Source: a virus. Taken from it: DNA of 64,000 bases. Positions 18,419 to 54,662 of this stretch are shown here, one piece after another. The stretch lies in the IMG/VR virus record IMGVR_UViG_3300044977_000034, positions 1 to 64,000 of that record; one strand, 5' to 3'. Position numbers and translations under genes: made by a program. How positions within the stretch are numbered: the stretch's first letter is position 1; the number at the start of each line of letters is the position of its first letter. The notes under the pieces are model-generated. The model made no database searches. It was not told the DNA's origin and was given only the letters and a program-made list of their open reading frames with translations.

Positions 18419-18460
18419 TACCGGGACGGGCGGCCTATCGCCCGAATCAAGGAGTCGAAT

Positions 18461-18979
18461 ATGAAAACGAAAACCTTCGATCGCCCGATCGTTGACTTGC
18501 AAGCGGCCCGCAAGGCCGCCGCCGAGCGCTTCTACGCCATCGGCATGGCGTGTCTGCCGGAAGGCTGGACCTACACCTTCCGCAAGGCGCTGAGCGGCCG
18601 AGCCTTCCTCGAATTGAAGCGCATCGAGGCGCCGAAGCCGGTGACCCGCAAGGCGCTCTACATCTGGCTGCATGAGTGCGCGCACGCTCACCTCCACGTC
18701 GGATCGCGCAAGACGCGGCACGTCGAGGAGATGGAGGCCGAGAAATGGGCGCATGAGAAGATGCGCGAACACGGCGTCCCGGTGCCGAAGGCGATGACCA
18801 AGCGCGCCAAGCGCTACGTCGCCCACAAGATCAAGCAGGCCCAGGTGCGCGGCGCGAAGAAGATCGACGCGGAGGCCAAGGCCTTCGCCGAGGGGTCATA
18901 CGCCAAGGCCAAGGCCGGATCGCGAGGTCCCATCCTGCTGGAACGGCTGCTGAACGGGATGTTCAACCGCCGCCGCTAA
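18461..18979 (+). CDS. SprT-like HExxH zinc metallopeptidase
   Basis: WLHECAHAHLH...EEMEAE. Confidence 0.6.
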   Translation: MKTKTFDRPIVDLQAARKAAAERFYAIGMACLPEGWTYTFRKALSGRAFLELKRIEAPKPVTRKALYIWLHECAHAHLHVGSRKTRHVEEMEAEKWAHEKMREHGVPVPKAMTKRAKRYVAHKIKQAQVRGAKKIDAEAKAFAEGSYAKAKAGSRGPILLERLLNGMFNRRR

Positions 18980-19063
18980 ACGAAAAGGCCGCCGCGCTGC
19001 GGATGCGCGGCGGCCCCCGTCTCGCCCACAGAAAGGGACTGGAGGTCCCAACAGGAGTCTACC

Positions 19064-19711
19064 ATGAAACACGCCGTCGCCTACTTCAGAACCAGCTCAG
19101 CCACCAACGTCGGCCAGGACAAGGATTCGCTCGCCCGCCAGGAGAGCGCCGTCCGCAGCTACGCCGCGCGCAACGACATCGAGATCGTCGGCGAATATTA
19201 CGACGCGGCGGTCAGCGGCGCCGATCCGGTCACGCAGCGCGAGGGATTCAGCCTCATGCTCCAGCGCATCGCCAGCAACGGCGTGCGGACAATCCTCGTC
19301 GAGACAGCGAATCGCTTCGCCCGCGACCTGATGGTGCAGGAGACTGGCTGGAAGATGCTTCAGGATCTCGGCGTCGAGCTGGTCGCCGTCGATTCGCCCA
19401 TGAGTTTCGTCGAGGACACGCCGACGGCGAATATGGTCCGGCAGATCCTGGGCGCGGTGGCCGAGTTCGATAAGGCGCTGACGGTCGCCAAGCTCCGGGG
19501 CGCGCGCGAGCGCATGAAGGCCAAGACCGGCAAGTGCGAGGGGCGGAAGAGCTGGGCCGAGATGGACCCGGCGATGGTCGCGATGGCGCGCGAGCTGCGC
19601 CGGTCCGGCAAATCGCTAAACGCGGTGCGCGTAGCCCTGGCGAACCTGGGCTATGTCTCCGCGAGCGGGACGCCGTTCACGCGATCGGTCGTTTCTCGGA
19701 TGACCGACTGA
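19064..19711 (+). CDS. Small serine recombinase (resolvase family)
   Basis: AYFRTSS, SLARQ, DAAVSG, NRFARD. Confidence 0.9.
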   Translation: MKHAVAYFRTSSATNVGQDKDSLARQESAVRSYAARNDIEIVGEYYDAAVSGADPVTQREGFSLMLQRIASNGVRTILVETANRFARDLMVQETGWKMLQDLGVELVAVDSPMSFVEDTPTANMVRQILGAVAEFDKALTVAKLRGARERMKAKTGKCEGRKSWAEMDPAMVAMARELRRSGKSLNAVRVALANLGYVSASGTPFTRSVVSRMTD

Positions 19712-19818
19712 AACAAAACTTGCAAAAAAATGGTTGACAGCAACGCCAACCCATCGAAATATGCGCCTGCGGCGTTCGTGGTGGAACGCCGCAGGCCTAA
19801 AAGTGATGGAGAAGCGTT

Positions 19819-22477: not shown

Positions 22478-22953
22478 CCGCCAAGCTTGACGAATTTCAC
22501 CAGATCCAGCGGGCACGCGAAATTGCTCTCGACGTTGCCGGTATTACTGACCGGGCACGTTCTGATGTACCACTCGTCCGAGGTGCGCTCCTCCACGATC
22601 GCGGCTGCGCCCAGGTCGTCGCTCACGCTCACCCAGGCGAAGACGTCACCGATCGCGCGCCGAACCGAATCCACGCTGGCGACGAAGACCTCGCGGTAGG
22701 GCCAATCCCTCCGGCCGGTGAAGGTCACCCCGAGCGTCTTGACCTCGATTCGGAGCCTCGGGCCGCCCTCTTCCCAGGCGAACACGTCGCCGTTGTCGCG
22801 GTAGTTCCTGTGCTCAGCCGCCGTCGGCGCCTCTCGGAGCGGCGGAATCGTGACCCAGTAGCCTTGCGAACTGAGCCAATAGGCGAAGGCCCACTGCCCA
22901 CGCTTCGACCCGCGCAATCGGTCGAGGAATTTCGCATGTTGGCTGGTGCCCAA
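22474..22953 (-). CDS. Putative PD-(D/E)XK nuclease
   Basis: D.GD...RIEVK; start codon uncertain, lies within the tRNA. Confidence 0.55.
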   Translation of the reverse strand: MGTSQHAKFLDRLRGSKRGQWAFAYWLSSQGYWVTIPPLREAPTAAEHRNYRDNGDVFAWEEGGPRLRIEVKTLGVTFTGRRDWPYREVFVASVDSVRRAIGDVFAWVSVSDDLGAAAIVEERTSDEWYIRTCPVSNTGNVESNFACPLDLVKFVKLGG

Positions 22954-23019
22954 GGAAGGGATCGAACCTCCGACGCCCGCGCCTTCAACGCGGCGCTCTA
23001 CCAGCTGAGCTACCTGGGC
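22944..23019 (-). tRNA. tRNA-Phe(GAA) with encoded CCA
   Basis: Cloverleaf: GCCCAGG/CTTGGGC acceptor stem, TAGCTCAGCTGGTAGAGC D-arm, CCGCG-TTGAAGG-CGCGG anticodon arm, GGTTCGATCCC T-arm. Confidence 0.92.
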
Positions 23020-25797: not shown

Positions 25798-26315
25798 TCG
25801 CCCTCATCATCCGCCTGGGGAGACCGAACACTGCGCAATTGCTGAACCGCAACCGGCAAACTCGACCCCCCATCTCCAGCCAACCGTACTTGGCTCGCCG
25901 GTAGCGAAATCCGCCGCATCGGACGCAAAACCGGCACAAAAATCACAGTGTCAAACCCCAAATGATAGAGCGCCAAAAGATCAACCTCATCCGACGTCAG
26001 CAACCTGTTCACATATCTCCCGCCACCAATCGACCGCTGCTTCGCAAGCTCCCAAGTACACCGCTCCTTCAGCCCACCTTGATGGTAGTCACTCGTCGAC
26101 TTCACATCCACACGATAAGACCGCCCCTCATAATCCAAAATAATGTCAAACCCTATCGTGTCTACATGCACACAGTAATGCCCCATCTTCGTCAAAAAAG
26201 CGCAAACCATAAACTCAGCATATCGCGGAAGTCGAGGAAACTTCTCAGCCTCAACTTCAGCAGAACTCGAAACGTCTACAATATTGCCAAATAAATCCTT
26301 CACTTCTCCCATCAC
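25794..26315 (-). CDS. PD-(D/E)XK free-standing endonuclease
   Basis: AEF.V...L, FDIILD...YRVDVKS; lower GC than its neighbours. Confidence 0.7.
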   Translation of the reverse strand: MMGEVKDLFGNIVDVSSSAEVEAEKFPRLPRYAEFMVCAFLTKMGHYCVHVDTIGFDIILDYEGRSYRVDVKSTSDYHQGGLKERCTWELAKQRSIGGGRYVNRLLTSDEVDLLALYHLGFDTVIFVPVLRPMRRISLPASQVRLAGDGGSSLPVAVQQLRSVRSPQADDEGE

Positions 26316-26631
26316 ACATCTCCATTACGCTAATACTACACGGGGCAACCCATATTTTTGCCTCGTGGTTATAGGCTTAAAACTTTCCGACCAGCACTCC
26401 CCCCCCACCCTCCTGGCACCATTACGGCACCCTATCGGCACCGTTGCGGCACTGAATACGCCCCTGGCAGTGGTGCAGAACGCCATGCGTTCTACGCCTG
26501 TCTCACAATCCGAAGATAGCGAGCGCGCAACGCCTGGAGATGCCCGCAATTGCTGGGCTTTCCGGGCCATGCGGTTGACCGGAGGCGGCGCTGCGCGGAA
26601 ACCAGTTGACCGAGCGCGAAACCGGGCCGCA

Positions 26632-27045
26632 GGGACGCCCGACGCGCGCCGCGCGACAATCAATCTTCGCATCCGGAGGAGGGAACCGGCGGGGAAGTGA
26701 TCGAATCGTCGATCGCTGGCCGCTGCCCTCATGAACGTGAATGCAGGCTTTAGCGGCGGGACGAAGAAAGGGTTTGCCCAACGGGACGCGCAGCGCCCTT
26801 TCTTTGTCCCGGCGTGGGGACATTAGCGGGACAAAGGGCATCATTATTGACGTTTTCTCGCGGCGGAGCGCTAATGTTTGAACGCCTGGGGCCTGGGCGC
26901 TGCGGGACCTCGCTTAAACCGGGCGCTAGTCGCGCCCGCGCTCCGTCCCTTGGCCGCTATGGGCTGGTGGAATGTGGCGGGGGGAGGGGGGATAGGGGGG
27001 AACCGTCACAATACTTGTCAAGAGGGACATGGCGGATAGCGGGAC
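26632..27045. repeat. GGGAC/GTCCC cluster 1
   Basis: 10 copies in about 415 bp of apparently non-coding DNA. Confidence 0.6.
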
Positions 27046-27150
27046 GGAATTGAAAATTTAATGTTTGAGGTGGGGCAAGCCACTGATTTGACTACCTCGC
27101 ATTTTATGCAAGATTGGCCTTCAGACGCTCACAGAAGGCCGCTGGCGAGC

Positions 27151-27525
27151 ATGGCGAACAATCCGGCGCTGATTCCTGCCCAATCAATCGACGAGGTTTT
27201 GAGGCCTCGTGGATGGCTCCAATTGCGGCTGCAAAGCCACAAGTCTGGGGTATGGTTTGGCTGGTCTCTGCGCCAGCGGCGCAACTGGTGGCGCGTGAGC
27301 GGCTGGGCCGACAAGTCCGAGTCGATCGTCATCGGCCATGTTGACTTTGACGCGCGCGTGTTCCGGCCGGTTCCGGGTCGAGGCGGCTTGCCTCAAACGG
27401 TGATGTTTGGATGGCTCTTGCGCCGTCTCGCGTCTGGCGAGCTACCGCTGGCTGACGCTGACCTGTACGCGCTGACGCTGAACGTCGAGACACTCCAAAC
27501 CCGTCAACGGCGCCTTCGCCGATGA
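27151..27525 (+). CDS. Hypothetical protein
   Basis: ATGA-coupled to the next ORF; start uncertain. Confidence 0.4.
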   Translation: MANNPALIPAQSIDEVLRPRGWLQLRLQSHKSGVWFGWSLRQRRNWWRVSGWADKSESIVIGHVDFDARVFRPVPGRGGLPQTVMFGWLLRRLASGELPLADADLYALTLNVETLQTRQRRLRR

Positions 27526-27704
27526 TCGATCGCGACGAGGCGTGCGACCGCCTGGAGGATGAGAACCTCACCGACTGGGAGGCGGACTTTGTCGCCTCGA
27601 TTCGCGACTGGCACGGTTCGCTGACTGACGCGCAGGCTGAGACGCTGGCGCGTTTGGTCAAGCGGCGGCTGGGCGAGGACTGTGACCCGACAGACTTTCA
27701 ATGA
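27522..27704 (+). CDS. Hypothetical protein
   Basis: LTDWE.DFV.S...LT..Q...L. Confidence 0.6.
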   Translation: MIDRDEACDRLEDENLTDWEADFVASIRDWHGSLTDAQAETLARLVKRRLGEDCDPTDFQ

Positions 27705-27718
27705 GGAGGAACCGAGCC

Positions 27719-27877
27719 ATGGCGAGAGACAAGTATGAGCAACACGCCCGGATCGTGATCGATCAATTGTTCCCGCAATGGCCGGACGAGGCGCGCGCGT
27801 CTCTGGTCTGGCTACTGGTTGATTTTCTCCTGAGTCTGGACGGCATCTGCGCCAAGATGCCTGAAGGGCCGCAATGA
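27719..27877 (+). CDS. Hypothetical 52-aa protein
   Basis: GAGGAGG SD; MARDKYEQHAR. Confidence 0.5.
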   Translation: MARDKYEQHARIVIDQLFPQWPDEARASLVWLLVDFLLSLDGICAKMPEGPQ

Positions 27878-28158
27878 CTTAGGCGGCAAATTTCTGAAAA
27901 GCACCTCGAGATCGGTAAACCGGGAAAACTCCTAGATCGCTGTTAACATCGCCAGTTATCAGAACATCATCTTTCGGCTTTGCCGACTTTTTCTGCAAAC
28001 CTGACTTTCCCGTAGCTTAGGGTAAATTCGGCGTATTTGGCCGCTGATGGGCCTTGCCGGAATCTCCGGGCTTGCACGGCGTGCAAAAATGGACCCCGCT
28101 CACGGGCGATCTATGGCCGTTTAATCGCCTATCGTCTTTTGTGGCTTGAGAGGCGTTT

Positions 28159-28386
28159 GTCCCTGGCTTGTCCCGTCTCAGTCCCGCCTGTTTAAGCGTG
28201 TCCGAGCCGAATCGACGCGCGGGACACGCGCGGGACATTGTGCAAGCATTCCGCCCGGAATTGCTCAGGTCGAGAGGGACAAGCGCGGGACGCAACCAGC
28301 CCTATGTATATAAAGCGTGCAAAAAGCGTCGTGATGGCGACGAAAACCTCTTGACCGCGCGTCCCGCAACGATCATATAGAGGGAC
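28159..28386. repeat. GGGAC/GTCCC cluster 2, 11-bp phased
   Basis: 9 copies in about 230 bp. Confidence 0.65.
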
Positions 28387-28427
28387 ATGCGCGCCGCCTA
28401 CGGCGCCCCAAAAGAGGAGTCGAGATC
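28351..28427 (+). promoter_or_regulatory. Early promoter plus GCCTA-loop hairpin and GGAGTCGA leader
   Basis: TTGACC-17-CATATA; GCGCCG-CCTA-CGGCGC. Confidence 0.7.
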
Positions 28428-28664: not shown

Positions 28665-28666
28665 CA

Positions 28667-28730
28667 AGGCGAAACGCGATCGGCTATTGGCCGATCGCGT
28701 CCTGGCGTGAGGCGCCAGCTGACGAGCCTA
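28667..28730 (+). ncRNA. Type II hammerhead ribozyme HH1 (predicted cut after C28701)
   Basis: AGGC-GAAA-CGCGATCGGC/GCCGATCGCG-TC-CTGGCG/CGCCAG-CTGACGA-GCCT. Confidence 0.92.
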
Positions 28731-28759
28731 CCGTCTGCCATCCAACCGGAGTCGAATCC

Positions 28760-29176
28760 ATGTCACGCGAATCTGATCTGCGCCCGTTCTCGTTTGATGA
28801 TCTGCCTTGCCGCGACGGCAAGCGCGTCGAGCCCGAAAAATGGGGACCGAAATATTCCCGGCCGGTGAAACCCGGCAAGCCGGTCGATCGCTGCCCCACC
28901 AATTGCGCGAGCGGGCAGAAGTATGACTTCGACGCGGGGAAACACCGGGCGAAGATCCGGGCGGAGTTCGTCGCCCAGGCTAACGCCGATCGGCGGTCCT
29001 GGGCGGAGGGCAAGCCGCGCGCGAAGGCCTGGGGCCTCACCGAGACGATTGTCGACGTCTACAAGGCGGCCATGCGCGACAAGCGCAAGCGTGAGTTCGC
29101 CGCGCAGTCCGCAAAAAATGCCGAGTACCTACAATTTTTTCTCGACGACGACGCCCCGATCGCGAGGGCGGCATGA
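28760..29176 (+). CDS. Hypothetical early protein
   Basis: GGAGTCGAA leader before ATG 28760. Confidence 0.65.
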   Translation: MSRESDLRPFSFDDLPCRDGKRVEPEKWGPKYSRPVKPGKPVDRCPTNCASGQKYDFDAGKHRAKIRAEFVAQANADRRSWAEGKPRAKAWGLTETIVDVYKAAMRDKRKREFAAQSAKNAEYLQFFLDDDAPIARAA

Positions 29177-29358
29177 TGACCAAGTGGATTGTGACCTATC
29201 CCGGCATCACTCAAGACCTAACCCGCGCCTTCGACAACGAGTCGGAGGCCAAGCAATTCGCGCGCGTCCGCCGGGATCGCGAACTGCATATGTGGCGCCA
29301 TGTCCGCCTTGAACGGACCGAGGACAATTGCGTCACCATGATCCCGGTCAAGTTCTAA
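29173..29358 (+). CDS. Hypothetical early protein
   Basis: ATGA coupling. Confidence 0.6.
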   Translation: MMTKWIVTYPGITQDLTRAFDNESEAKQFARVRRDRELHMWRHVRLERTEDNCVTMIPVKF

Positions 29359-29424
29359 GGCGAAACGAGGAGGCCCGTCAGCGGGCTTCCTTGTCGCGCG
29401 GTGAGGCCGCGCCTGATGAGCCTA
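29358..29424 (+). ncRNA. Type II hammerhead ribozyme HH2 (predicted cut after C29395)
   Basis: AGGC-GAAA-CGAGGAGGCCCG/CGGGCTTCCTTG-TC-GCGCGG/CCGCGC-CTGATGA-GCCT. Confidence 0.92.
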
Positions 29425-29441
29425 ACCAACAGGAGTCGAAT

Positions 29442-30013: not shown

Positions 30014-30080
30014 TCGGCCTCGCCTGCCTGTTCGCGCTGTTCATGTTGGCGAGCGGCAGAATATAAAAACGGTTGCCATG

Positions 30081-30160
30081 TTGACAAGTTTTGCAGTCAA
30101 CGCTATCTGAGAGGGGCGCGGCGCCTACCGCGCCCCTTAACTTTTTTGGAGTCGAATCCC
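30081..30160 (+). promoter_or_regulatory. Promoter plus CGCCTA-loop hairpin and GGAGTCGAA leader
   Basis: TTGACA-17-TATCTG; GGGGCGCGG-CGCCTA-CCGCGCCCC. Confidence 0.75.
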
Positions 30161-31069
30161 ATGCGTGACCTACACCGAGAAATTACCGACAAAATCCTCG
30201 CCCAGCTCAAGACGGGCGTGGCGCCCTGGCGCAAGCCCTGGTCTGAGCACGTCCAGGCGCACGGTTCCGTGATGCCGCGCAACGCCGTCACCGGCCGCGC
30301 CTATTCGGGCGCCAACGTCCTGTTGTTGTGGGGCGTAGCGCAGACTGAGGGCTACGGCCCGAGGTGGCTGACGTTCAAACAGGCCAAGGCGGCTGGCGGG
30401 ACTGTGCGCGCGGGCGAGCACGGCGTGGCCGTGATCTTCGTCAAGCGCATGCTGGTGCGCGATCGAAAGGACCCGGACGCGCACAAGACGATCGGTTTTC
30501 TCAAGGCCTATACCGTGTTCAACACGGCCCAGTGCGACGGCTTGCCGGACTCGGTCCTGGGCATTGGCGAGGCTCCCCTGCACCGCCCGGTGAACCCGGA
30601 CGGGCGCGATGCTGACCTCGATGCCTTCGTCGCGGCGACCGAAATTCGCTTTGTCGAGCAAGGCATCAAAGCCCAATATTCGCCCCTGTTCGACCGCATC
30701 GAGATGCCGCCTTTCGCCCAGTTCAAGGGCGCCCATCCGTACTACGCGACCATGTTCCATGAGATGGGGCACGCCACCGGCCACAAGAGCCGCCTGGACC
30801 GCAACCTCAACAACAAATTCGGCGACCGCTCCTATGCGGCCGAGGAGCTAATCGCCGAGCTAACGTCGGCCTTTGTGTGCGCGGAGTGGGGCATCGACAT
30901 GGGCGAGGCTCCGGCCGCCTACATCGAGACCTGGGTCTCGCTCCTGGCCGAGAAGGAAACGGCGATCGTGACCGCCGCTGCGGCGGCCTCGCGCGCGGTG
31001 GAGTGGATGCGGGGCGCGGCGAGCGCCGAGGAGGCGGACGAGGACGAACCCCTGCCCATGGCCGCCTAA
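30161..31069 (+). CDS. ardC: ArdC-like ssDNA-binding antirestriction protein
   Basis: PWRKPW, YSGAN, WLTFKQA, FHEMGHATGH..RL.R, YAAEELIAE. Confidence 0.88.
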   Translation: MRDLHREITDKILAQLKTGVAPWRKPWSEHVQAHGSVMPRNAVTGRAYSGANVLLLWGVAQTEGYGPRWLTFKQAKAAGGTVRAGEHGVAVIFVKRMLVRDRKDPDAHKTIGFLKAYTVFNTAQCDGLPDSVLGIGEAPLHRPVNPDGRDADLDAFVAATEIRFVEQGIKAQYSPLFDRIEMPPFAQFKGAHPYYATMFHEMGHATGHKSRLDRNLNNKFGDRSYAAEELIAELTSAFVCAEWGIDMGEAPAAYIETWVSLLAEKETAIVTAAAAASRAVEWMRGAASAEEADEDEPLPMAA

Positions 31070-31093
31070 TTCAATCCTGAGAGGAGTCGAGCA

Positions 31094-31324: not shown

Positions 31325-31387
31325 GGGCGAAACGGCGGCCGAGCGATCGGCCGTTGTCGCGGCGTAAGGCGCCGCCTGATGAGCCTA
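31325..31387 (+). ncRNA. Type II hammerhead ribozyme HH3 (predicted cut after C31358)
   Basis: GGGC-GAAA-CGGCGGCCGA/TCGGCCGTTG-TC-GCGGCG/CGCCGC-CTGATGA-GCCT. Confidence 0.92.
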
Positions 31388-31401
31388 AACAGGAGTCGAA
31401 A

Positions 31402-31905
31402 ATGATTAGTGACGAAGACAAGCTTGCGGCGGCCGAGGCGCTCGACCGGGCCTATGCAAAGGCGGAGGCCTTTGACGCGGCGCAAGAGGAAGACCGCAAA
31501 TTGGATGCCTACGGGCATCTGACGTGGACGCTTGGGGATGACGATTGGATGGCGTGTTTCGACGCCGTCCGGATAGGCTCCGAGATCGCCTACCACGTCG
31601 TGGTCGACTGTGAGTCGGGCGGTTTTATCTCCACAATCGAGAAGGGCGTCGTGCCAGTTAGCGAGGCCGCGCGCCTCATTAATCTGCCGAGCCAGTACGT
31701 TGATATGGCGATCGAGAACCATCTCGACGCGCGCCGTAAACGCGAACCCGTGGGCCGGTTCGCCTATCGCGGCTGCGAGAAGCGCTGGGCGCGACATATC
31801 AAGCAGCTCATCAAGCAAAAGCCGGAGCCCCAGGACGATGACGTCGAGGACGTTGACCAAGCGGCCGAGCTACGCAAGGCGGCGCTGAATCGGGGGCAAC
31901 CATGA
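31402..31905 (+). CDS. Hypothetical early protein
   Basis: GGAGTCGAA leader. Confidence 0.65.
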   Translation: MISDEDKLAAAEALDRAYAKAEAFDAAQEEDRKLDAYGHLTWTLGDDDWMACFDAVRIGSEIAYHVVVDCESGGFISTIEKGVVPVSEAARLINLPSQYVDMAIENHLDARRKREPVGRFAYRGCEKRWARHIKQLIKQKPEPQDDDVEDVDQAAELRKAALNRGQP

Positions 31906-32135
31906 GCCAAGTTATATTCACGCGCTGGTGCCTGGACCCCAAGGGGCGCACGCCGGTCTCGGTTGACCCGGCGCGCGTCGATTGCACCGAGCACTACGGC
32001 GATGCTTTCCAGGCGCCCTACGCTGACGGTGAAGCCTTCCCGGCGGCCACGCGGGTCATCATGAAGGGCAAGCAAGAATATGTCGTCCAAGGGGCTCTGG
32101 CTGACGTCGTGGCGCGCCTGAACGTCAACGACTGA
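31902..32135 (+). CDS. Hypothetical early protein
   Basis: ATGA coupling. Confidence 0.6.
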   Translation: MSQVIFTRWCLDPKGRTPVSVDPARVDCTEHYGDAFQAPYADGEAFPAATRVIMKGKQEYVVQGALADVVARLNVND

Positions 32136-32209
32136 GAACGCGAGCGGGACGGCGTCGAGCAATCGTCGCCGCCTCGCGGGCGCTCTTGCCCGGTTAAGGA
32201 GTCGAACCC

Positions 32210-32512
32210 ATGCAGAAAGTAGCCGAAAAAACGATCAAACCCACCGAGCTGGTGAGCGAGGGGAGCTGGGGCTCCCGGCGTCTCGGCAAGCACGCCTCGA
32301 CCATGACGCTGTACGCGGACGGTCCCCATTACACGATCGAGTGGGACATCCCCGCGCTCGATGAGGTCGAGCACATAGGCCTGACGTTCGAGCACAAAAC
32401 GCTGACCGATTACGACGGCATCATGTCGCTGCCACGCGAGGCGGTCGCGTTCCTGCGCGAGCAGGGCTTCATCGTGCCTCGCGAGTTCGAGGACGACGAG
32501 GCGCTGTCGTGA
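32210..32512 (+). CDS. Hypothetical early protein
   Basis: GGAGTCGAA leader; IEWDIP..DYDG. Confidence 0.7.
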   Translation: MQKVAEKTIKPTELVSEGSWGSRRLGKHASTMTLYADGPHYTIEWDIPALDEVEHIGLTFEHKTLTDYDGIMSLPREAVAFLREQGFIVPREFEDDEALS

Positions 32513-32730: not shown

Positions 32731-32750
32731 AAATAAAAACAGTCGCCATG

Positions 32751-32826
32751 TTGCCTCTTTTCGCATAGCATGCCATATCAGGACCGGGCGGCGCCTACCG
32801 CCCGGTTTTCTTTTGGAGTCGAAATT
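32751..32826 (+). promoter_or_regulatory. Promoter plus CGCCTA-loop hairpin and GGAGTCGAA leader
   Basis: TTGCCT-17-CATATC; ACCGGGCGG-CGCCTA-CCGCCCGGT; upstream ATAAAAAC.GT.GCCATGTTG shared with the 30081 promoter. Confidence 0.7.
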
Positions 32827-33030
32827 ATGTCCCGTATTGGAATCCTGCGACAAGCGCGCCGCCTCGCGCGCATGCCCAACCCCGAGGCGCGGCTCGCCTC
32901 TCTCGATCGCATCGCAGCCATTCTTGAGAAGGCCTGCGAGCGCAATGCGCGCCAACGTGCGCTGGCTAAATTCCAGCCGCGCGTCATCCCCTCAAAGCGC
33001 ATCTACACGCGCAAAGGGAGGCCGCAATGA
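32827..33030 (+). CDS. Hypothetical basic protein
   Basis: GGAGTCGAA leader. Confidence 0.6.
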   Translation: MSRIGILRQARRLARMPNPEARLASLDRIAAILEKACERNARQRALAKFQPRVIPSKRIYTRKGRPQ

Positions 33031-35399: not shown

Positions 35400-35471
35400 A
35401 GGCCAGCGCGCGCGCCTCGACGTTTCGGGGCGCGGTCGCGGGCAATCCGCCCGGTAGAGAGAGTCGAACCA

Positions 35472-41398: not shown

Positions 41399-41414
41399 GA
41401 GCCTACCCCGGCAT

Positions 41415-41429
41415 TTGCAGTTCGTGCAA
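41415..41429. promoter_or_regulatory. TTGCA-N5-TGCAA operator between primase and helicase
   Basis: Identical to the copies at 9799 and 54610. Confidence 0.6.
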
Positions 41430-44306: not shown

Positions 44307-44465
44307 GATTGAGTCGCCCATCGATCAGCGGTTCGGCCGATTCGAGCGCTGTCGTCGGGAACGGCAAGCGAAGTAGGCCGCTAAGGCGCGCGCCAACCGC
44401 CGATCGGTCCACGGGAGGTCGGGGGGCGGCCCCAGTCAGGGTCGTCCCCCGCAGGAGTCGAAAAC

Positions 44466-45348: not shown

Positions 45349-45836
45349 TCGGGCGACAATTCGGAAGGCTCCAAGTCATTGGGCTTCGGAGCGACGGAAG
45401 GCGCATTCTCGCGGTTTGCCGCTGTGACTGCGGCGGGCAAAAAGAGACGCGGCGGGATGCTTTGGCATCCGGAGCCACACGATCATGCGGATGTTTAAAC
45501 AGAGAGCTGTCAACGGCGAGAGCAATCCGCGCTGGAGAAACAAACCGAAAGCATGGGGAAAGCTGGCCGCCCACGAAGGAATATAAGGCGTGGCAGTCGA
45601 TGTGGCAGCGATGCGGCAACCCAAAAAACGCGAAATATGACCTCTATGGCGGTTGCGGAATCACAGTCTGCGAACGCTGGCGCGAGTACGGCAACTTCCT
45701 CGCGGCCCTCGGCCGCGCGCCGTCACCTACGCATTCGCTTGATCGTTGGCCTAATCCAAGCGGGAATTACGAGCCAGGGAACGTTCGCTGGGCGACGGCG
45801 GAGGAACAGCGCGCGAACAGGAGGGACGCGCAGTGA
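45345..45836 (+). CDS. HNH-type endonuclease
   Basis: FGRL, CRCDCG, SCGC, YGG.GI.VC.RW, SLDR...GNYEPGN.RWAT. Confidence 0.85.
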   Translation: MIGRQFGRLQVIGLRSDGRRILAVCRCDCGGQKETRRDALASGATRSCGCLNRELSTARAIRAGETNRKHGESWPPTKEYKAWQSMWQRCGNPKNAKYDLYGGCGITVCERWREYGNFLAALGRAPSPTHSLDRWPNPSGNYEPGNVRWATAEEQRANRRDAQ

Positions 45837-46774
45837 TCCATTCCGCGCCAATCGGAAGTCGCGAGCAATGGCTTGCGCGCCGCCGCCTCAACGTCAACGC
45901 CTCTGAGGCCGCCGCGCTATTCGGACCCGACATCCACCCATATCTGAGCCCGTTTAAGCTCTGGGCGCTCAAGAGCGGCAAGCTCCCCGATCAGGAGGAC
46001 AGCCCGATCCTCCAGCGCGGGCGCAAGTTCGAGCCGGTCGTCATCGAGATCCTCAAGGAGGACTATCCCGACTGGCACCTTAGCCCAGCCAACGTCTATT
46101 ACTGGGACGATTCGACGAGGATCGGCGCCACGCCCGACGTCTACGCCACCCGGCCTGCCGACTACGGCCGAGGGACGGTACAGATCAAAACCGTCGGCCA
46201 GTTCGCGTTCAAGCGCCGCTGGCATGACGAACACGGGAACATCGCGGTGCCCACCTGGGTGGCCGTCCAGGCCAGCGTCGAGGCCTATCTGATCGGGGCG
46301 TCATGGGCTGGCGTGGCGGCGATGAAGCTCGGGGACGGCGGCATCGAGATCGCCTACATCGACATCCCGCTCAAGCCTCACCTGATCCACAAGATCGAGG
46401 ATCTGACCGGCGAGTTCTGGCGCCGGGTGCAGGCCGACGAGCCCTATGACCCGGACTTCGGCCGCGACCGCAAAGTGATCTTCGACCTGTACGCGGAAGG
46501 CTCCGGGCCGATCATCGACCTCACTGACGACGCCGAGTTCCGCGAGATCCTGGCCGAGCGCGCGCAGTTCAAGCAAGTCGAGAAGGCGGGCACCAACGCG
46601 GCCGAGGAGCGCAAGATTCTCGACGCCCGGATCATCCAGAAGCTCGGCAATGCTCCGGCCGCGCGCAGCGGCGCGCGCTTGGTGACGGTCAGAGTGGTTA
46701 AAAAGAAAGCCTACCAAGTGAAGGCCACGCAATATCCGCAAGTGACCGTGAAAGGGGCCGATGATGGCGACTGA
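45833..46774 (+). CDS. YqaJ/lambda-exonuclease-like recombination nuclease
   Basis: WL..R...ASE, G..FEP, ATPD, QIKT. Confidence 0.85.
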   Translation: MIHSAPIGSREQWLARRRLNVNASEAAALFGPDIHPYLSPFKLWALKSGKLPDQEDSPILQRGRKFEPVVIEILKEDYPDWHLSPANVYYWDDSTRIGATPDVYATRPADYGRGTVQIKTVGQFAFKRRWHDEHGNIAVPTWVAVQASVEAYLIGASWAGVAAMKLGDGGIEIAYIDIPLKPHLIHKIEDLTGEFWRRVQADEPYDPDFGRDRKVIFDLYAEGSGPIIDLTDDAEFREILAERAQFKQVEKAGTNAAEERKILDARIIQKLGNAPAARSGARLVTVRVVKKKAYQVKATQYPQVTVKGADDGD

Positions 46775-48023
46775 GTCGAGGGATCTCACGATCGCGCAAG
46801 ACCTTGGCCACAGGTTGCCTCAGTTCGAGGCCGCGCTGACCGGGACCGGCGTCGATCCCAAGCGGTTCATCCGAGTGGTGATGACGGCCATTAACATAAA
46901 TCCGGACCTCCTCGCTTGTGAAAGGCGGTCTTTAATGAACGCGGCCATGCGCGCCGCGAGCGACGGTCTCGTGCCGGACGGAATCGACGGCGCCCTGGTC
47001 CCATTCGAGGGCAAGGTCACATGGATGCCGATGATCGCGGGCATCCGAAAGAAGGTCCGCCGGAGTGGCGAGGTGACCAGCTGGGACGTGACGGCGGTCT
47101 TCCAAAAGGATCGCTTCGACTACGAGCTGGGCGACGATCCGTTCATCAAGCACAAGCCCTACGATGCGCCGGAGCTGCCGCGCGCCGACGGCGAAGCCGA
47201 TGAGGATTACAACCGGCGGCTGCGCAAACATCTCGACCACGGACAGCTGACCCACGTCTATTCGGTCGCGAAGATCAAAGGCGGCGACAAGTCGCGCGAC
47301 GTCATGACGCGGGCCGAGGTCGAGCTGGTGCGCGATAGCTATGCGCGGAAGAACAAGAAGGGCGAGTTCTCGCCAGCCTGGAGGAAATCGTTCGCTGAGA
47401 TGGCGAAGAAGACGATCGCGCGGCGGCACGCCAAGCAGCTGCCGATGTCCACGGACATCCTGGCTTTGCTCTCTCGCGATGATGACCTATATGATGTGGA
47501 CAGAGAGCGCGCGGACCGCATTCAAGCGCCCAGCGTGCTCGATGACCGCCTAGAGCTTCTCGTCGGAGTCGATCCTGAGACTGGCGAATTTGGTTCTGCT
47601 GAAGGGGTGTCGACTCCCCCATCGCAGGAACGCGCGGCCCCCCATGACATCTCCGGAGTAGGCGCCGGGGACGAGGGGGCCGCGCAACATCTCGAATCCC
47701 GAGCGGTGATCCCCGCCGCTCCGGATGGCGCGGCGGACAGGGGCTCGCAGCCGACCGCCGCGCAGCCCGAGCTGGCGACTACCGCACTAGAACCCAGCTC
47801 GCCAGCGCCACCGGGAGTCTCGCAAACCCCCGCACCAGCTCCCGGTGGTACTCCCCGCGATCTCCTGACGCCGCCGGTCGAGCAGCGCGGCGCAGACATG
47901 GCCAAAAGAGGTAGGCCGGAGCTGGAGCGCTGGGTGAACGAATTGCCGCCCGATGAAATGGCGAAGATCTCCCTGGCCCAGCTCAAGGCATGGCGCGGCG
48001 TCGCCGACAAGGTGGCGACCTGA
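46761..48023 (+). CDS. recT: RecT-family single-strand annealing protein
   Basis: SL..A...A..GL.PDG, LVPF, W...F.EMAKKT. Confidence 0.85.
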   Translation: MMATESRDLTIAQDLGHRLPQFEAALTGTGVDPKRFIRVVMTAININPDLLACERRSLMNAAMRAASDGLVPDGIDGALVPFEGKVTWMPMIAGIRKKVRRSGEVTSWDVTAVFQKDRFDYELGDDPFIKHKPYDAPELPRADGEADEDYNRRLRKHLDHGQLTHVYSVAKIKGGDKSRDVMTRAEVELVRDSYARKNKKGEFSPAWRKSFAEMAKKTIARRHAKQLPMSTDILALLSRDDDLYDVDRERADRIQAPSVLDDRLELLVGVDPETGEFGSAEGVSTPPSQERAAPHDISGVGAGDEGAAQHLESRAVIPAAPDGAADRGSQPTAAQPELATTALEPSSPAPPGVSQTPAPAPGGTPRDLLTPPVEQRGADMAKRGRPELERWVNELPPDEMAKISLAQLKAWRGVADKVAT

Positions 48024-48971: not shown

Positions 48972-49012
48972 AACCAACCGGGCCGCCTACGGCCCCTCGG
49001 GGGAAGAGTCGA

Positions 49013-50467: not shown

Positions 50468-50491
50468 ACCGCCTACAAACGGAGTCGAACC

Positions 50492-50820: not shown

Positions 50821-50849
50821 TTGCACGTTGTGCAAAATCTGCCTAAATT
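50821..50849 (+). promoter_or_regulatory. Promoter with operator over the -35
   Basis: TTGCAC-17-TAAATT; TTGCACGTTGTGCAA. Confidence 0.6.
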
Positions 50850-51992: not shown

Positions 51993-52643
51993 TCAGAACG
52001 CGAGACGCTCCTTGGCGCGCCTGTGCAGCCCGAGCAGGCTCAGCAAGCCGAAGCCGAGCACCAGCATGGCCCAGGTCGAGGGCTCCGGAACGCCGGTCAC
52101 CAACTGAACCGAGCCGCCGAACGACTGCCTCGGCGCCGTGAAGTCGATGGCGAATTGGGCCTCGTCCGAGGTGAACGCGCCAGCCGCCGCCGAAACCGGA
52201 CCAAAGGAGCCGTCGAGCAGCGTGGCTGGGAACGTGTGCGTGGCGAGCAGCCCGCCATCGGCGAAGGTCCGCTCGGTCGTCGGGCCTGGATCGTTGGTCA
52301 GGCCGTTGACCGTGAAAGTTGACAGCGTGTTCCCTGTCCCCGTGATGGCGCTTTGGATGACGTCGATCGTCAGCTCGTGCGAGCCGCTGAATCCCGCCGC
52401 CGCAGTGGCGTCGAGCGTCACGGCGGAGAGGTCCGCCTTGGGCAGAATCGGCGAGCCTTGAGCGTTGATGGTGATGTTGGCGAAGTTCGCGTCGTTGGCC
52501 GTGAGGCTCGCCGCGCCGGTCGTGATCCCCGTGATGTTGTCGATCAAGGTTCCGTTGTCGAACACCTCGATGCTCAACGTCGCCTTGGCCGGACCCGCGC
52601 CGATCGCCGCGAGAACCGCCGTAGTCAGTAGCAATCTATGCAT
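51993..52643 (-). CDS. PEP-CTERM (PEPxxWA) surface protein
   Basis: Signal peptide ending AKA; C-terminal VPEPSTWAM-TM-RR. Confidence 0.85.
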   Translation of the reverse strand: MHRLLLTTAVLAAIGAGPAKATLSIEVFDNGTLIDNITGITTGAASLTANDANFANITINAQGSPILPKADLSAVTLDATAAAGFSGSHELTIDVIQSAITGTGNTLSTFTVNGLTNDPGPTTERTFADGGLLATHTFPATLLDGSFGPVSAAAGAFTSDEAQFAIDFTAPRQSFGGSVQLVTGVPEPSTWAMLVLGFGLLSLLGLHRRAKERLAF

Positions 52644-52704
52644 GGAAAGACCCCTAGAGTTGGATGCCGAATCGTAGCCTTTCTACAACTCGATGAATAC
52701 AAAT

Positions 52705-52733
52705 AAATTACATCCGTCTTGCAGTCCATGCAA
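52705..52733 (-). promoter_or_regulatory. Promoter with operator for the PEP-CTERM gene
   Basis: TTGCAT-17-TAATTT; TTGCAGTCCATGCAA. Confidence 0.6.
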
Positions 52734-52828
52734 AAAAATCAGCGGCGGAGGCGCAGTGGGAGGAACGCGCCGCCGCCGCTTCAACCGCCTATTGCCCCTG
52801 CGCTAGAGACCTCGGCGATTCAGCCTGT

Positions 52829-53527
52829 TTACCGCTTGGGCTGTCGCTCCGGAGGCGTCGGCAACGGCTGGCCTGGAGCCGGACGGCTTGGCGGCAGGCC
52901 TTGGCCCGGACGCGGCGGAATCCCCGGCCTAGTCGGCGGCAGGGGTTGGCCTGCGGTCGGGGGACGGCCCGGTCGGCCGCCGGGGAGGCTTTGGTCGGGG
53001 TGCTCCTCGCCAACGCCATAGTCAGGATCGGTCGGCCGCTCCGGCCGCACCGGAACATCGATCACCGCCCACCGCGAGCCGACGCCCGAAATAAAGATCA
53101 CCGCGAGCGCCTTGCCCGGAGGGACGCTCGGAGGCAGCGGCGGCCAGACGGAGCCCGGAGGCAGCTCTGGAAGACCGGGAGGAACCTCCGGCGGCAAGCC
53201 CTGATCGGGACTCTCTGGATCGATCGGGTAGACCGGGAGCTGACCCGATTCGGCGCCTTCATCTACGCCATAACCCGGATCGCGACCGCCCCAACCGCCC
53301 CACGAACCCGGAGGACGATTGCCCGGATGCTCGCCGCCGCCCCAACCCCAGCCCGGATCGACCGGACGGCCAGGACGACCGGGCAAATGGCCGGGACGCT
53401 CGGGACGGCCGGGAAGCCCGCCGCCGATTTCAGCGCCTTCGTCAATGCCATAGTCGGGGTCGACAGGGCGCCCCGCGTGATCAAAGTGAACTGGTTGAAG
53501 CCAGACTAACTGCTTTCCTCGTGCCAT
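52829..53527 (-). CDS. Proline-rich repeat protein
   Basis: RPVDPDYG-like and PDQGLP-like repeats; AAGGAG SD. Confidence 0.7.
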   Translation of the reverse strand: MARGKQLVWLQPVHFDHAGRPVDPDYGIDEGAEIGGGLPGRPERPGHLPGRPGRPVDPGWGWGGGEHPGNRPPGSWGGWGGRDPGYGVDEGAESGQLPVYPIDPESPDQGLPPEVPPGLPELPPGSVWPPLPPSVPPGKALAVIFISGVGSRWAVIDVPVRPERPTDPDYGVGEEHPDQSLPGGRPGRPPTAGQPLPPTRPGIPPRPGQGLPPSRPAPGQPLPTPPERQPKR

Positions 53528-53598
53528 GCGTTTCTCCTTCTTGGGGTTCGCCTCTCCCTTGTGCGCCTTGGCGGTAGCACGAATCGATGACGGGCGGG

Positions 53599-54594
53599 CT
53601 ACCACTTGATGATTTTCATCGTGCAAGTTGTGGGCTGGATGTTGTTGTGGGCGCCCGAGCTGCCCGCAGGGGCGAGGTTAGCGTAGCCGGTTCCGATATA
53701 GACGCCGCTGGCGGACGCGCCCCCGGTGTTTGCAGCGCTTTGAGAGACAGCGCCAGTACTGGGGTACGTCCCGCCATAAAGGGCGAAATTCGTCGCCTCG
53801 GTGTAGCCGTGGGTGTGGTTGTCCTGAGACGCGGCATGGCCATGGCCATAGTCGCCGTGGGTGTGGGACGGCATCTCGGCCGCCGACAACGTGTGATAGG
53901 CCTCGCCCGCGAAGGTCACCACGCCCCAGCTGTTGAGGATGCCCCGGTTGCCCTCGTTCTGGGCGTAAGGCCCCGAGGGAGGAACCGTGCCGATCTGGTC
54001 CGCCATCGCGGTCACCGTGCCGCGATAATCGGGGACCCTGAACGAGCCGCCGCTGACCCCCCAGGTCCCGCCGATGATGTCGTACAGCAGATCATGCTGG
54101 GCCTGACTCACATATCGGCCGTCGCACGGCAGCCAGCCGTTGTGGATAAAGGTCGTCGGCATATCCGCCACCGTCCCCGGAGGGCAACCGGCGTAATCCC
54201 AATAGACCCGGCTCGGGGTGACGATGATCGGATAGGGGATGCCGAAGCTGGTGAAGAAATAAATCCCGATCTGGTCGTTGAAGTTGTTGCCGCGCACATA
54301 GAGCGCGTGGCCGTTGAGGTTGATCCCCTGAATGACGATCCGGCGACCTCCGATCGGCGGGTAGCTGATGTACTGGTCGCTGCTCAGCGTGCCGGTCAGA
54401 TAGAGGATCGGATTGGCGGCCTGGGCGATGGTGAGTTCGATCGTTCCGCCTGAACACGAGAGGACGTACTGCCCGCCATACGCCGTGTCGAGCGTATTGA
54501 GCGAGCCATCCATAGGGGTGTCCCAGCCGGTCGCGGCGTAGTCTCCATGAGCGGGAATTTCCAAACTTAAGTTAGGTGTAAAAGTGCTAACCAT
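53599..54594 (-). CDS. Tail fibre/collar-domain protein
   Basis: GWL.CDG, F.VPDYRG, GE..HTL...EMPSHTH, HNNIQP. Confidence 0.85.
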   Translation of the reverse strand: MVSTFTPNLSLEIPAHGDYAATGWDTPMDGSLNTLDTAYGGQYVLSCSGGTIELTIAQAANPILYLTGTLSSDQYISYPPIGGRRIVIQGINLNGHALYVRGNNFNDQIGIYFFTSFGIPYPIIVTPSRVYWDYAGCPPGTVADMPTTFIHNGWLPCDGRYVSQAQHDLLYDIIGGTWGVSGGSFRVPDYRGTVTAMADQIGTVPPSGPYAQNEGNRGILNSWGVVTFAGEAYHTLSAAEMPSHTHGDYGHGHAASQDNHTHGYTEATNFALYGGTYPSTGAVSQSAANTGGASASGVYIGTGYANLAPAGSSGAHNNIQPTTCTMKIIKW

Positions 54595-54609
54595 CGGTAT
54601 TTCCAGATC

Positions 54610-54662
54610 TTGCAGTTCGTGCAAAAAGCGCTATATTTGGGCGGCCTACAGGAGTCGAAATC
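54610..54662 (+). promoter_or_regulatory. Promoter, operator and GCCTA/GGAGTCGAA leader
   Basis: TTGCAG-16-TATATT; TTGCAGTTCGTGCAA; GCCTACAGGAGTCGAA. Confidence 0.7.

Follow-up and report, generated by a model that had tools for sequence, protein, structure and literature searches.

Why do so many unrelated genes on one strand of this phage begin behind the same eight nucleotides, and why is GCCTA so often found just upstream? An earlier, sequence-only reading of the window (the whole 64,000-nucleotide stretch that we analysed, positions 1 to 64,000 of IMG/VR record IMGVR_UViG_3300044977_000034) had listed 14 copies of RGAGTCGA near start codons, 11 of them preceded by GCCTA, and had proposed that the pair forms a translational signal or a recombination handle. 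All 14 coordinates were right, each copy lying on the plus strand with the start ATG of an ORF 0–5 nt (most often 4 nt) further 3′, as were all 11 GCCTA positions, which lie 2–20 nt 5′ of the word (Table 1).

Table 1. Features associated with the start signal in the window.
Feature	Coordinates	Strand	Remarks
Sigma70-like promoter TTGCAA-17-TATAAT, cassette 1	18390–18418	+	Scanner 10/12 with TG extension
Hairpin, 6–7 bp stem, GCCUAU loop, GCCTA 18433–18437; begins 9 nt past -10	18427–18444	+	Hairpin kept in L006 orthologue
GGAGTCGA	18451–18458	+	ATG 18461, 172-aa orphan, opens its plus-strand block
Promoter-like TTGACC-17-CATATA	28351–28380	+	Seen by eye and by conservation only; strict scanner did not report it
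Hairpin, 6-bp stem, CCUA loop, GCCTA 28396–28400	28391–28406	+	Orthologues: loop kept, stems changed
GGAGTCGA	28416–28423	+	ATG 28428, 78-aa orphan; L001, L005 and L007 HSPs end exactly at 28423
Type II hammerhead 1, AGGC-GAAAC-stem III-GUC-stem I-CUGACGA-GCCUA	28667–28730	+	Rfam Hammerhead_II 23.7 bits (below gathering threshold), model positions 1–66
GGAGTCGA	28748–28755	+	ATG 28760
Type II hammerhead 2, stem II AGGC/GCCU, GCCTA 29420–29424	29358–29424	+	Rfam 24.7 bits (below gathering threshold)
GGAGTCGA	29432–29439	+	ATG 29442
AT-rich stretch and promoter-like TTGACA-17-TATCTG	30063–30109	+	Paralogous to 32733–32779 (alignment A3)
11-bp hairpin, CGCCUA loop, then T-run; 5′ arm begins 2 nt past -10	30111–30138	+	Top terminator-like match
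GGAGTCGA	30148–30155	+	ATG 30161, ArdC-like anti-restriction protein
GCCTA at 31064 overlapping ArdC stop codon, and GGAGTCGA 31083–31090	31064–31090	+	ATG 31094
Type II hammerhead 3, stem II GGGC/GCCU	31325–31387	+	Rfam 23.9 bits (below gathering threshold); 95% identity to L012 hammerhead at another position
GGAGTCGA	31392–31399	+	ATG 31402
Third cassette type: conserved structured spacer without GCCTA, 3′ end GGAGTCGA 32198–32205	32136–32205	+	ATG 32210
AT-rich stretch, TTGCCT-17-CATATC, hairpin 32780–32809 (CGCCUA loop), T-run, GGAGTCGA 32815–32822	32733–32822	+	ATG 32827; alignment A3
Third cassette type, second copy, 3′ end AGAGTCGA 35460–35467	35400–35467	+	ATG 35472
13-bp GC hairpin without GCCTA, and GGAGTCGA 44454–44461	44421–44461	+	ATG 44466, opens its plus-strand block
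Start-less bipartite copy in recT: GCCTA 47548–47552, GGAGTCGA 47565–47572; inverted TCGACTCC 47610–47617	47548–47617	+	
6-bp hairpin 48980–48995, CCUA loop, and AGAGTCGA 49005–49012	48980–49012	+	Abuts ATG 49013, HNH endonuclease
GCCTAC, unstructured, and GGAGTCGA 50481–50488	50471–50488	+	ATG 50492
Promoter-like TTGCAG-16-TATATT over TTGCA-N5-TGCAA palindrome, GCCTAC 54644–54648, GGAGTCGA 54651–54658	54610–54658	+	ATG 54663

A start-associated word and its upstream partner

We measured enrichment against shuffled sequence, a comparison that the sequence-only reading had suggested and that bore it out. We counted 17 copies of RGAGTCGA where 6.1 were expected, and the word followed by ATG within 0–5 nt occurs 14 times, always on the plus strand, against 0.49 expected (200 dinucleotide shuffles, maximum 3), with no such combination in the final 14 kb of the 78-kb genome. 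The bipartite pattern GCCTA-N2-20-RGAGTCGA was found 12 times against 0.04 expected, the twelfth copy, missing from the earlier list, lying within recT. When local GCCTA density is taken into account, the probability that at least 11 of the 14 starts would be so preceded is ~1e-12 to 1e-14. The start signal is non-random and start-associated; one or two of the GCCTA copies may be coincidental, such as that at 31064, which overlaps a stop codon. The motif forms the 3′ end of 14 of the ~18 plus-strand intergenic gaps of at least 20 nt and of none of the minus-strand gaps, and the minus-strand structural and primase genes do not carry it. Minus-strand genes use ordinary Shine–Dalgarno sequences, as had been noticed earlier for late genes: where they have GGAG it is followed by varied bases and never by the full TCGA, and the other genes of both strands likewise carry GGAGG-type sequences with varied followers.

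Both words are invariant in a clade of ~13 IMG/VR contigs. Nine genomes hold 68 unique exact sites of GGAGTCGA with an ATG, whereas single-mismatch variants, summed for each of the eight positions, never exceed 7, and the spacers on both sides of TCGA vary freely while TCGA does not. As judged from these comparisons, the signal is under purifying selection that extends beyond the Shine–Dalgarno core. Five relatives have 10–18 sites each, strand-biased, against 0 for a reversed-pattern control. The composite of hammerhead and motif is confined, within IMG/VR, to 13 contigs, and the nearest GenBank relative has none.

The GGAG of the word is a Shine–Dalgarno core and pairs with the anti-Shine–Dalgarno sequence, whereas TCGA has no pairing partner in the canonical 16S 3′ end (...GGATCACCTCCTTT, from one Caulobacteraceae 16S; the phage host may differ). 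The claim that TCGA lies outside such pairing was thus borne out on a real 16S 3′ end, with the near-universal tail assumed for the phage host; GCCUA likewise cannot pair with the canonical end. Distant relatives of the phage infect Alphaproteobacteria, and in five alphaproteobacterial genomes from candidate host groups we counted 3–14 sites per 2.4–7.2 Mb, as against 14 in the 78-kb phage.

A resemblance to another part of 16S rRNA could be taken as mimicry, in which GCCUAA ... AGUCGAAC would copy positions 46–67 (GCCUAACACAUGCAAGUCGAACG) and recruit a 16S-binding protein. The corresponding 23-mer occurs at positions 46–68 of real 16S genes from many bacteria, including Caulobacteraceae and Sphingomonadales, with both halves in the same order. 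However, the halves are separated by 2–20 nt in the phage and by a fixed 9 nt in 16S, the bases 3′ of the motif depart from the rRNA sequence and GCCUA is missing at a third of the sites; the likeness was also spotted post hoc, with a chance of such a match of ~0.002–0.02. We regard mimicry as very improbable indeed.

Three kinds of cassette with a common 3′ module

Intergenic cassettes of three kinds end in the bipartite signal as a common 3′ module. The first has a sigma70-like promoter and a GC hairpin that carries GCCUA in its loop, the second a type II hammerhead with an AGGC/GCCU stem II, and the third a conserved fold without GCCUA. The five (G)CCUA-loop hairpins proposed from the window all proved real. 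Among 25 such hairpins, with stems of 6–11 bp, GC and CG pairs are swapped at stem positions 2–8 while every loop retains CCUA, and the motif almost always lies 3′ of them. In 18 aligned cassettes, GCCTA and GGAGTCGA are invariant against a mean column identity of 60%, and in folds the motif region is largely unpaired or weakly paired. The promoter component is more variable, in that a single site (18390–18418) passed the strict scanner, four more have conserved TTGAC-17-(C/T)ATAT blocks together with an AAAAAC stretch, and nine have no promoter.

The three hammerheads have complete cores, and GCCU, which the earlier reading had placed in stem II, is the 3′ strand of that 4-bp stem. The type II arrangement (a CUGANGA ... 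GAAA ... NUH core, an open stem II, and loops that close stems I and III) is common to all 3 copies in the window and all 23 in the clade, and the minimum-free-energy fold of the first window copy recovers its three stems with z = -3.1. The window copies align over the full length of the RF02276 model with scores below the Rfam gathering threshold (37 bits), for which the covariation of stems across the 23 copies compensates in part. All 23 unique hammerheads have the motif 4–18 nt further 3′, and AGGC/GCCU is the common form of stem II. Because GCCU is intrinsic to the structure as stem II, its conservation within hammerheads needs no extra reader. The proposal that cleavage unmasks GCCUA fared less clearly: folding shifts weakly in its favour, the mean unpaired probability of GCCUA rising from 0.70 before cleavage to 0.80 after it, and in ~14 of the 23 cleavage-product tails an alternative hairpin with GCCUA in its loop is predicted.

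The third fold, which matched no Rfam family at 32136–32205, is 92–96% identical there in three relatives (L007, L008 and L009), and the genes 3′ of it differ.

Clusters of type II hammerheads at the flanks of genes have been described from phages and prophages (Perreault et al. 2011, PMC3088659; Rfam RF02276). The predicted phage ribozymes resemble them in their topology and complete core, and in lying between small phage genes, just 5′ of start codons, with varying genes downstream. They differ in their sub-threshold Rfam scores and constant 4-bp AGGC/GCCU stem II, in the fusion of the same ribosome-binding word to every copy, and in that many tails can, by prediction, refold with the catalytic core.

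Homology between relatives stops at the motif

Checking related phages for breakpoints, we found that 32 of 107 BLAST segments (HSPs) have right ends 0–12 nt past a motif, against 1.4 expected, whereas no left ends fall there; in 17 of the 32 the offset from the motif 3′ end is 0–1 nt. Past 32822 alone, ten HSPs end within 0–7 nt, five of them exactly at that position. The 84 motif-led ORFs of the clade fall into at least 46 unrelated protein families, one family can stand behind different cassette types, and one cassette can precede unrelated genes. Because nucleotide homology between relatives stops at the motif, the cassettes coincide with mosaic junctions, which fits the earlier suggestion of a recombination handle. 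Homology ending at the motif would be expected from plain cassette conservation combined with gene turnover as well as from crossover at that point. The phage encodes RecT and a YqaJ-type exonuclease (45833–48023), a serine recombinase (19064–19711) and several HNH endonucleases.

The copy within recT lacks a start codon, and its inverted partner lies at a distance of 37 nt. Four relatives conserve the recT copy by way of rare codons, namely CTA (3.6% of Leu), GGA (10.4% of Gly) and GAT (33.5% of Asp). This conservation speaks for a recognition of the words that does not depend on a start codon next to them.

These observations also bear on the idea that a DNA-level signal is superimposed on the Shine–Dalgarno sequence, with GAGTC serving as a GANTC (CcrM-type) methylation site or GAGTCGA as a recombinase or nuclease site for integron-like ORF swapping. 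Such a signal would suit the breaks in homology right at the motif 3′ end, the start-less recT copy with its inverted partner and the encoded recombinase and HNH endonucleases; GANTC is present in every site (by construction of the motif), and CcrM acts in the Alphaproteobacteria that distant relatives infect. Yet we found no GcrA, CcrM-type methylase or tyrosine recombinase in the phage; GANTC is only mildly under-represented, with 248 sites scattered over the genome; and the final GA is not constrained by CcrM. Moreover, the sites lie 30–45 nt 3′ of the -10 or, in hammerhead cassettes, far from any promoter, a 67-aa gene was inserted at 32827–33030 without motif copies on both flanks, and the covarying stems and conserved loops point to RNA. 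This evidence speaks against CcrM/GcrA methylation control, with neither protein encoded by the phage (the host may differ) and the sites away from promoters, and against integron-type recombination, with no Phage_integrase domain in the genome and no pair of sites flanking the insert; a DNA-level signal of some kind is, overall, quite improbable.

Candidate readers and related systems

The sequence-only reading had invoked a protein or small RNA that reads the signal, and our searches gave it no candidate: no RegA/RegB homologue was detected in the phage (with uninformative controls), the conserved small proteins carried no Pfam/PHROG hint of a reader and no antisense RNA candidate was found. 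The lack of a candidate would suit a standardised strong ribosome-binding site with an insulator and no dedicated reader, in which the word is a structure-free landing pad and the hairpin or ribozyme insulates and stabilises the 5′ end, as in the synthetic RiboJ, the copies being kept identical by selection on translation efficiency and spread by duplication and recombination of cassettes. GGAG does lie at a good Shine–Dalgarno distance, the motif region is mainly unpaired or weakly paired, and the cassettes are paralogous and mobile. However, efficiency alone would rarely fix four non-pairing bases exactly, with TCGA constant between variable spacers; the other genes of both strands manage with GGAGG and varied followers; the motif is not in use in the five candidate host-group genomes; and neither the conserved recT copy with its rare codons nor the conservation of the GCCUA loop is explained. 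We consider this account unlikely.

We lean instead towards mobile, PeSL-like expression cassettes whose start signal, similar to SAS and specific to the gene class, would be recognised on the RNA by a putative phage-specific factor. Such cassettes would head nearly every non-coupled gene in the plus-strand early and accessory blocks of the clade. Each would create an mRNA 5′ end that starts with a GC-rich hairpin, by initiation at a sigma70-type promoter that lies immediately 5′ of the hairpin or shares bases with it (some copies of the hairpin also resemble a terminator for upstream transcripts), by predicted hammerhead self-cleavage, after which the new 5′ end would start with stem I, or through the third conserved fold. 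GCCUA would be displayed in the hairpin loop; in hammerhead cassettes GCCU would first form stem II and after cleavage, in many copies, enter the loop of an alternative hairpin made from the CUGAYGA core and the tail. The 3′ end, GGAGUCGA, would place its GGAG as the Shine–Dalgarno core ~8 nt from the AUG. Because UCGA and GCCUA have no anti-Shine–Dalgarno pairing and no general ribosome-binding role in the five candidate host-group genomes, we infer that a phage-specific protein or RNA reads them on the RNA. Such a factor would act as a joint switch on the entire gene class, through translation or stability, comparable to T4 RegB/RegA on early ribosome-binding sites and to the proposal for mycobacteriophage SAS, and the 60–100 nt cassettes could serve as homology linkers for the phage RecT and exonuclease, with orphan genes swapped behind a ready expression signal. 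A more specific version, which we offer tentatively as a possibility, is that the GCCUA loop and GGAGUCGA together act as a bipartite operator on the RNA, through which a single phage-encoded regulator (protein or RNA) switches the early-message class on or off, with exposure timed by hammerhead cleavage and core refolding, the cassettes acting as exchange linkers and the recT copy as an internal control or decoy.

The analogies drawn earlier, to mycobacteriophage start-associated sequences (SAS) and to T4-type PeSL elements, hold feature by feature. The SAS of Cluster K mycobacteriophages, with the consensus GGGATAGGAGCCC (2011, PMC3203893; 2025 survey, PMC12699233), are short asymmetric words in 11–19 copies per genome (14 here, 10–18 in relatives) that lie in one orientation 3–7 nt (here 0–5 nt) before ATG-biased starts of non-structural genes only, and are conserved before different gene families (46 here). 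Both signals join a Shine–Dalgarno core to conserved bases without a 16S pairing partner (here against the Caulobacteraceae 16S; the host may differ), are rare in the host genome (here in five candidate host-group genomes), and have a second upstream element at a subset of sites and occasional start-less copies. The words themselves differ (GGAGTCGA versus GGGATAGGAGCCC), as do the phage group and the probable host group, and upstream of the word we find either an RNA hairpin, whose stem covaries while the loop is conserved, or a predicted ribozyme; the ESAS inverted repeats, in contrast, do not support pairing in RNA, and a role as DNA sites was suggested for them. The phage signal is an analogue of SAS and not a member.

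T4-type phages have mobile regulatory cassettes named PeSL (promoter-early stem-loop; Arbiol et al. 2010, PMC2839356). These intergenic modules are ~100 nt long, combine an AT-rich stretch with a sigma70-like promoter and a GC stem-loop, and end on the 3′ side in a Shine–Dalgarno sequence and ATG. Like the cassettes here, they are repeated among orphan genes of plastic regions and match insertions, deletions and replacements between close relatives. Our cassettes come from an unrelated phage group, exchange the promoter module for hammerheads or the third fold and bear an invariant 8-mer with a conserved loop word in the 3′ module. PeSL traits also include mini-circles formed when two cassettes recombine, as well as terminator and promoter activity.

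A further analogy is to phage T4, in which the RegB endoribonuclease and the RegA translational repressor act on early-gene ribosome-binding sites. There too an early mRNA class has a common ribosome-binding feature through which one phage factor could shut the class off; the likeness is purely functional, with no homologue detected here and a target word that is longer and bipartite.

Start-associated sequences entered the literature in 2011, and as late as 2025 a survey called their function unverified (PMC12699233). The clade studied here is an unusually clear case of such a signal, with a short invariant word and an RNA hairpin loop supported by covariation, in which promoter, ribozyme and third fold are interchangeable upstream modules and the comparative evidence for mosaic junctions is direct. 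If a reader exists, the signal would be a simple class-wide translational switch and a natural counterpart to engineered ribozyme and hairpin insulators of ribosome-binding sites.

A start-associated signal on the plus strand

The 8-mer that precedes early-gene ATGs, RGAGTCGA (GGAG being the Shine-Dalgarno core), is strongly overrepresented in the window, and every coordinate given for it in the sequence-only reading proved correct. There are 17 copies where 6.1 are expected. Fifteen of them are on the plus strand, and 14 of these sit 0–5 nt before an ORF-opening ATG; dinucleotide shuffles yielded 0.49 such sites. GCCTA lies 2–20 nt upstream at 11 of these 14 start-associated sites, and the resulting bipartite pattern has 12 copies against 0.04 expected, the twelfth lying within recT. 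The motif ends ~14 of the 18 plus-strand intergenic gaps of at least 20 nt and none of the minus-strand gaps, and the minus-strand genes do use plain Shine-Dalgarno sequences, as that reading had also held, with GGAG followed by varied bases. A search of the last 14 kb of the genome found no further motif sites.

The window spans the opening 64 kb of an IMG/VR phage genome of 78,058 bp and 63% G+C that is complete by CheckV. The genome's portal, head, terminase and tail-fibre genes and a primase/helicase block are all on the minus strand; the plus strand carries four blocks, chiefly of small orphan genes, that also encode an ArdC-like protein, a split SNF2 helicase, HNH endonucleases, a serine recombinase, a RecT/YqaJ pair and a DndB-like/radical-SAM pair. 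Because distant portal and helicase relatives have Caulobacter, Pelagibacter, Roseobacter and Sphingobium as hosts, the host is probably an alphaproteobacterium; prophage relatives sought in GTDB genomes for host assignment gave no matches. Rfam, run over the whole window at the gathering threshold, matched only a tRNA gene beside the terminase region (22947–23019, minus strand), whose anticodon loop we read as tRNA-Phe(GAA). The ~1.7 kb at 25798–27521 contain no convincing ORF, and the regulatory stretch after 27521 (within 25798–28400) is rich in GGGACA/GCGGGAC repeats and ends at the first early promoter. Inspection by eye picked out TTGCA-N5-TGCAA palindromes at or close to promoters (approximately 9800–9815, 41410–41425, 50822–50836, 52722–52736 and 54610–54624), one of them overlapping the promoter of the cassette at 54651; they resemble phage-repressor operators.

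The signal is real and clade-wide. Thirteen related contigs, located through ArdC (66–84% identity), carry the same word, and nine genomes contain 68 unique sites with exactly GGAGTCGA followed by ATG; variants with one mismatch, taken together, number no more than 7 at each of the eight positions. In whole-sequence searches, five relatives gave 10–18 sites each, with a strong strand bias and no site for the reversed-pattern control. The composite of hammerhead, GCCTA and motif was found in 13 of 2.9 million IMG/VR contigs, and no motif copy lies in 50 kb of the closest GenBank record, whose portal is 46% identical. MW202675.1 is among the closest relatives lacking the motif. Five alphaproteobacterial genomes have 3–14 motif-plus-ATG sites per 2.4–7.2 Mb, a density at least 50-fold sparser than that of the phage. 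That TCGA stands outside anti-Shine-Dalgarno pairing was borne out for one Caulobacteraceae 16S, whose 3′ end is the canonical CACCTCCTTT, so that motif positions 5–8 have no partner on it.

Cassettes that end in the signal

Cassette classes in the window (single positions are the first nucleotide of the 8-mer)
Class	Position	Strand	Remark
Promoter-hairpin cassettes	18451, 28416, 30148, 32815	+	
Promoter-hairpin class	54651	+	without hairpin
Promoter-hairpin class	49005	+	hairpin only
Type II hammerheads	28667–28730, 29358–29424, 31325–31387	+	full-length Rfam Hammerhead_II matches
Third structured spacer	32136–32197, 35400–35459	+	conserved, without GCCUA
Short unstructured spacers	31083, 50481	+	

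The motif closes intergenic cassettes of three kinds: promoter-hairpin, hammerhead and third spacer. For the promoter-hairpin kind, we aligned the locus upstream of ardC and its paralogue upstream of the SNF2 gene from several relatives (18 copies). From 5′ to 3′ they have an AT-rich stretch, TTGAC, a (C/T)ATAT block resembling a –10 element, a GC hairpin with a T-run after it in most copies, then GGAGTCGA and ATG, with GCCTA and GGAGTCGA invariant at a mean column identity of 60%. Only 18390–18418 passed a strict promoter scanner. The hairpin starts 9–12 nt after the –10 at 18451 and 28416 and 1–5 nt after it at 30148 and 32815, which places the predicted start site at or inside the 5′ arm of the hairpin. 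The phage's own transcripts would start with a full or shortened hairpin, and read-through transcripts would meet the full terminator-like stem. Because the T-run is absent from 4–5 of the 18 copies, termination is not the conserved function. In relatives, cassettes of the 28416 type also have GGGACA between the –10 and the hairpin.

RNAalifold returned no structure on loop-anchored ungapped alignments, in which loop lengths differ, and per-sequence folding was used instead. The 25 hairpins of this cassette class have stems of 6–11 bp with GC-to-CG swaps at stem positions 2–8; all 25 have CCUA in the loop, most loops being (C)GCCUA(A), and strong GCCUA-loop hairpins almost never occur without the motif downstream. 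A one-mismatch variant, GGAGTCTA, at 19055–19062 lies ahead of the serine recombinase gene, whose ATG is at 19064, and follows a long GC hairpin without GCCUA.

The three window hammerheads score 23.7–24.7 bits, under the 37-bit Rfam threshold. All 23 unique hammerheads of the clade have the form (A/G)GGC-GAAAC-stem III-GUC-stem I-CUGANGA-GCCUA, and all have GGAGTCGA 4–18 nt downstream; stem II is constant among them, and the changes in stems I and III are compensatory. GCCU is structurally required in this class, and that role alone accounts for its conservation there. In ~14 of the 23 predicted 3′ cleavage products, folding pairs the tail with the catalytic CUGAYGA(G) in a second hairpin with an (A)GCCUA loop, an arrangement that would mirror the layout of GCCUA-loop hairpin plus ribosome-binding site in the promoter-hairpin class and would inactivate the hammerhead core after cleavage. 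For the earlier proposal that cleavage unmasks GCCUA, folding predicts a modest gain (from 0.70 to 0.80 unpaired). Many hammerhead tails in relatives (CGUCAG, CUCACCAG; for example at L002:2460–2560 and L012:8794–8890) are complementary to the catalytic CUGAYGA core, and some to loop I (UGAUG) too, which would allow either a pseudoknot or a hairpin that sequesters the core.

The third spacer type stands where the hammerheads stand in their cassettes and is 92–96% identical in relatives; it neither matches an Rfam family nor contains a hammerhead core, and may be another processing element. The GCCTA at 31064, which overlaps the ardC stop codon, may be coincidental.

Mosaic junctions at the cassettes

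Comparing 26–38 kb of the window with nine relatives by blastn gave 107 segments, of which 32 end 0–12 nt after the motif (1.4 expected, P ~1e-33) and none starts at it. Segments that consist of a cassette only include 28666–28764, 29357–29440, 31326–31405, 32130–32212, 32733–32822 and 35396–35468. The 84 motif-led ORFs belong to 46 protein families, and a given family can sit behind a hammerhead or behind a promoter-hairpin, depending on the genome. Near-identical third-type cassettes stand before four unrelated genes, and the 31325 hammerhead shares 95% identity with a copy at a different map position in the related contig L012. A 67-aa orphan gene (32827–33030) is inserted exactly between GGAGTCGA and the former downstream gene, the SNF2 N-terminal gene, which directly follows the cassette in relatives and in the window now has a GGGAGG Shine-Dalgarno sequence. 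These mosaic features agree with the description of the promoter-early stem-loop (PeSL) cassettes of T4-type phages. RecT and an exonuclease are also among the proteins of the phage. The junctions are no proof of crossover within the 8-mer, because exchange at any other point of the conserved cassette would produce junctions of this kind too.

Candidate readers of the signal

The copy within recT, GCCTA-N12-GGAGTCGA at 47548–47572, has no start codon and is followed 37 nt downstream by an inverted copy of the 8-mer (whole span 47548–47617). Four relatives retain it at an overall identity of 73–82%. Its conservation through rare codons (CTA, 3.6% of Leu; GGA, 10.4% of Gly; GAT, 33.5% of Asp) suggests nucleotide-level selection on the words where no start codon follows, and such selection would favour a dedicated reader, of RNA or of DNA, over a plain ribosome-binding site. 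We consider it unlikely that the signal is a standardised ribosome-binding site or insulator that nothing reads, and give still less weight to a signal acting on DNA. On balance, we lean towards a start signal that acts at the RNA level, is specific to one class of genes and is carried by mobile cassettes.

Several specific readers were rejected. For pairing of the motif to another 16S region, UCGACUCC, a word of E. coli 16S, is absent from a Caulobacteraceae 16S; for a trans-acting hammerhead cutting GUC inside the motif, the genome has no GAAACUCC enzyme strand; and for an antisense or small RNA, complements (G-U allowed) occur only on the sites' own opposite strands and at two coding-region copies. 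Searches of the phage found neither GcrA nor a CcrM-type methylase for CcrM/GcrA control, no sigma70 region 2 for a phage sigma factor and no tyrosine recombinase for integron-type recombination. Neither a T7-type RNA polymerase nor RegA/RegB homologues were found in the phage, by searches whose controls were uninformative. A Chi-like octamer was rejected on account of the motif's fixed distance to the ATG. Pfam and PHROG searches with 30 small proteins gave no RNA-binding or nuclease hint beyond the HNH endonucleases.

Positions 46–68 of bacterial 16S rRNA (L094:3158–3180 and other 16S genes) contain GCCUAA and AGUCGAAC in the order of the phage signal, a likeness that is probably coincidental. 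Although the sequence at 46–67 was verified, the spacing and geometry do not fit, and we regard mimicry of this rRNA segment as very improbable.

The phage signal works similarly to the start-associated sequences (SAS/ESAS) of mycobacteriophages, and its cassettes resemble PeSL cassettes in function, the signal being a strict member of neither group. Combined with these two likenesses is a third, to the hammerhead punctuation of phage operons, and the phage signal is an unusually well-defined case.
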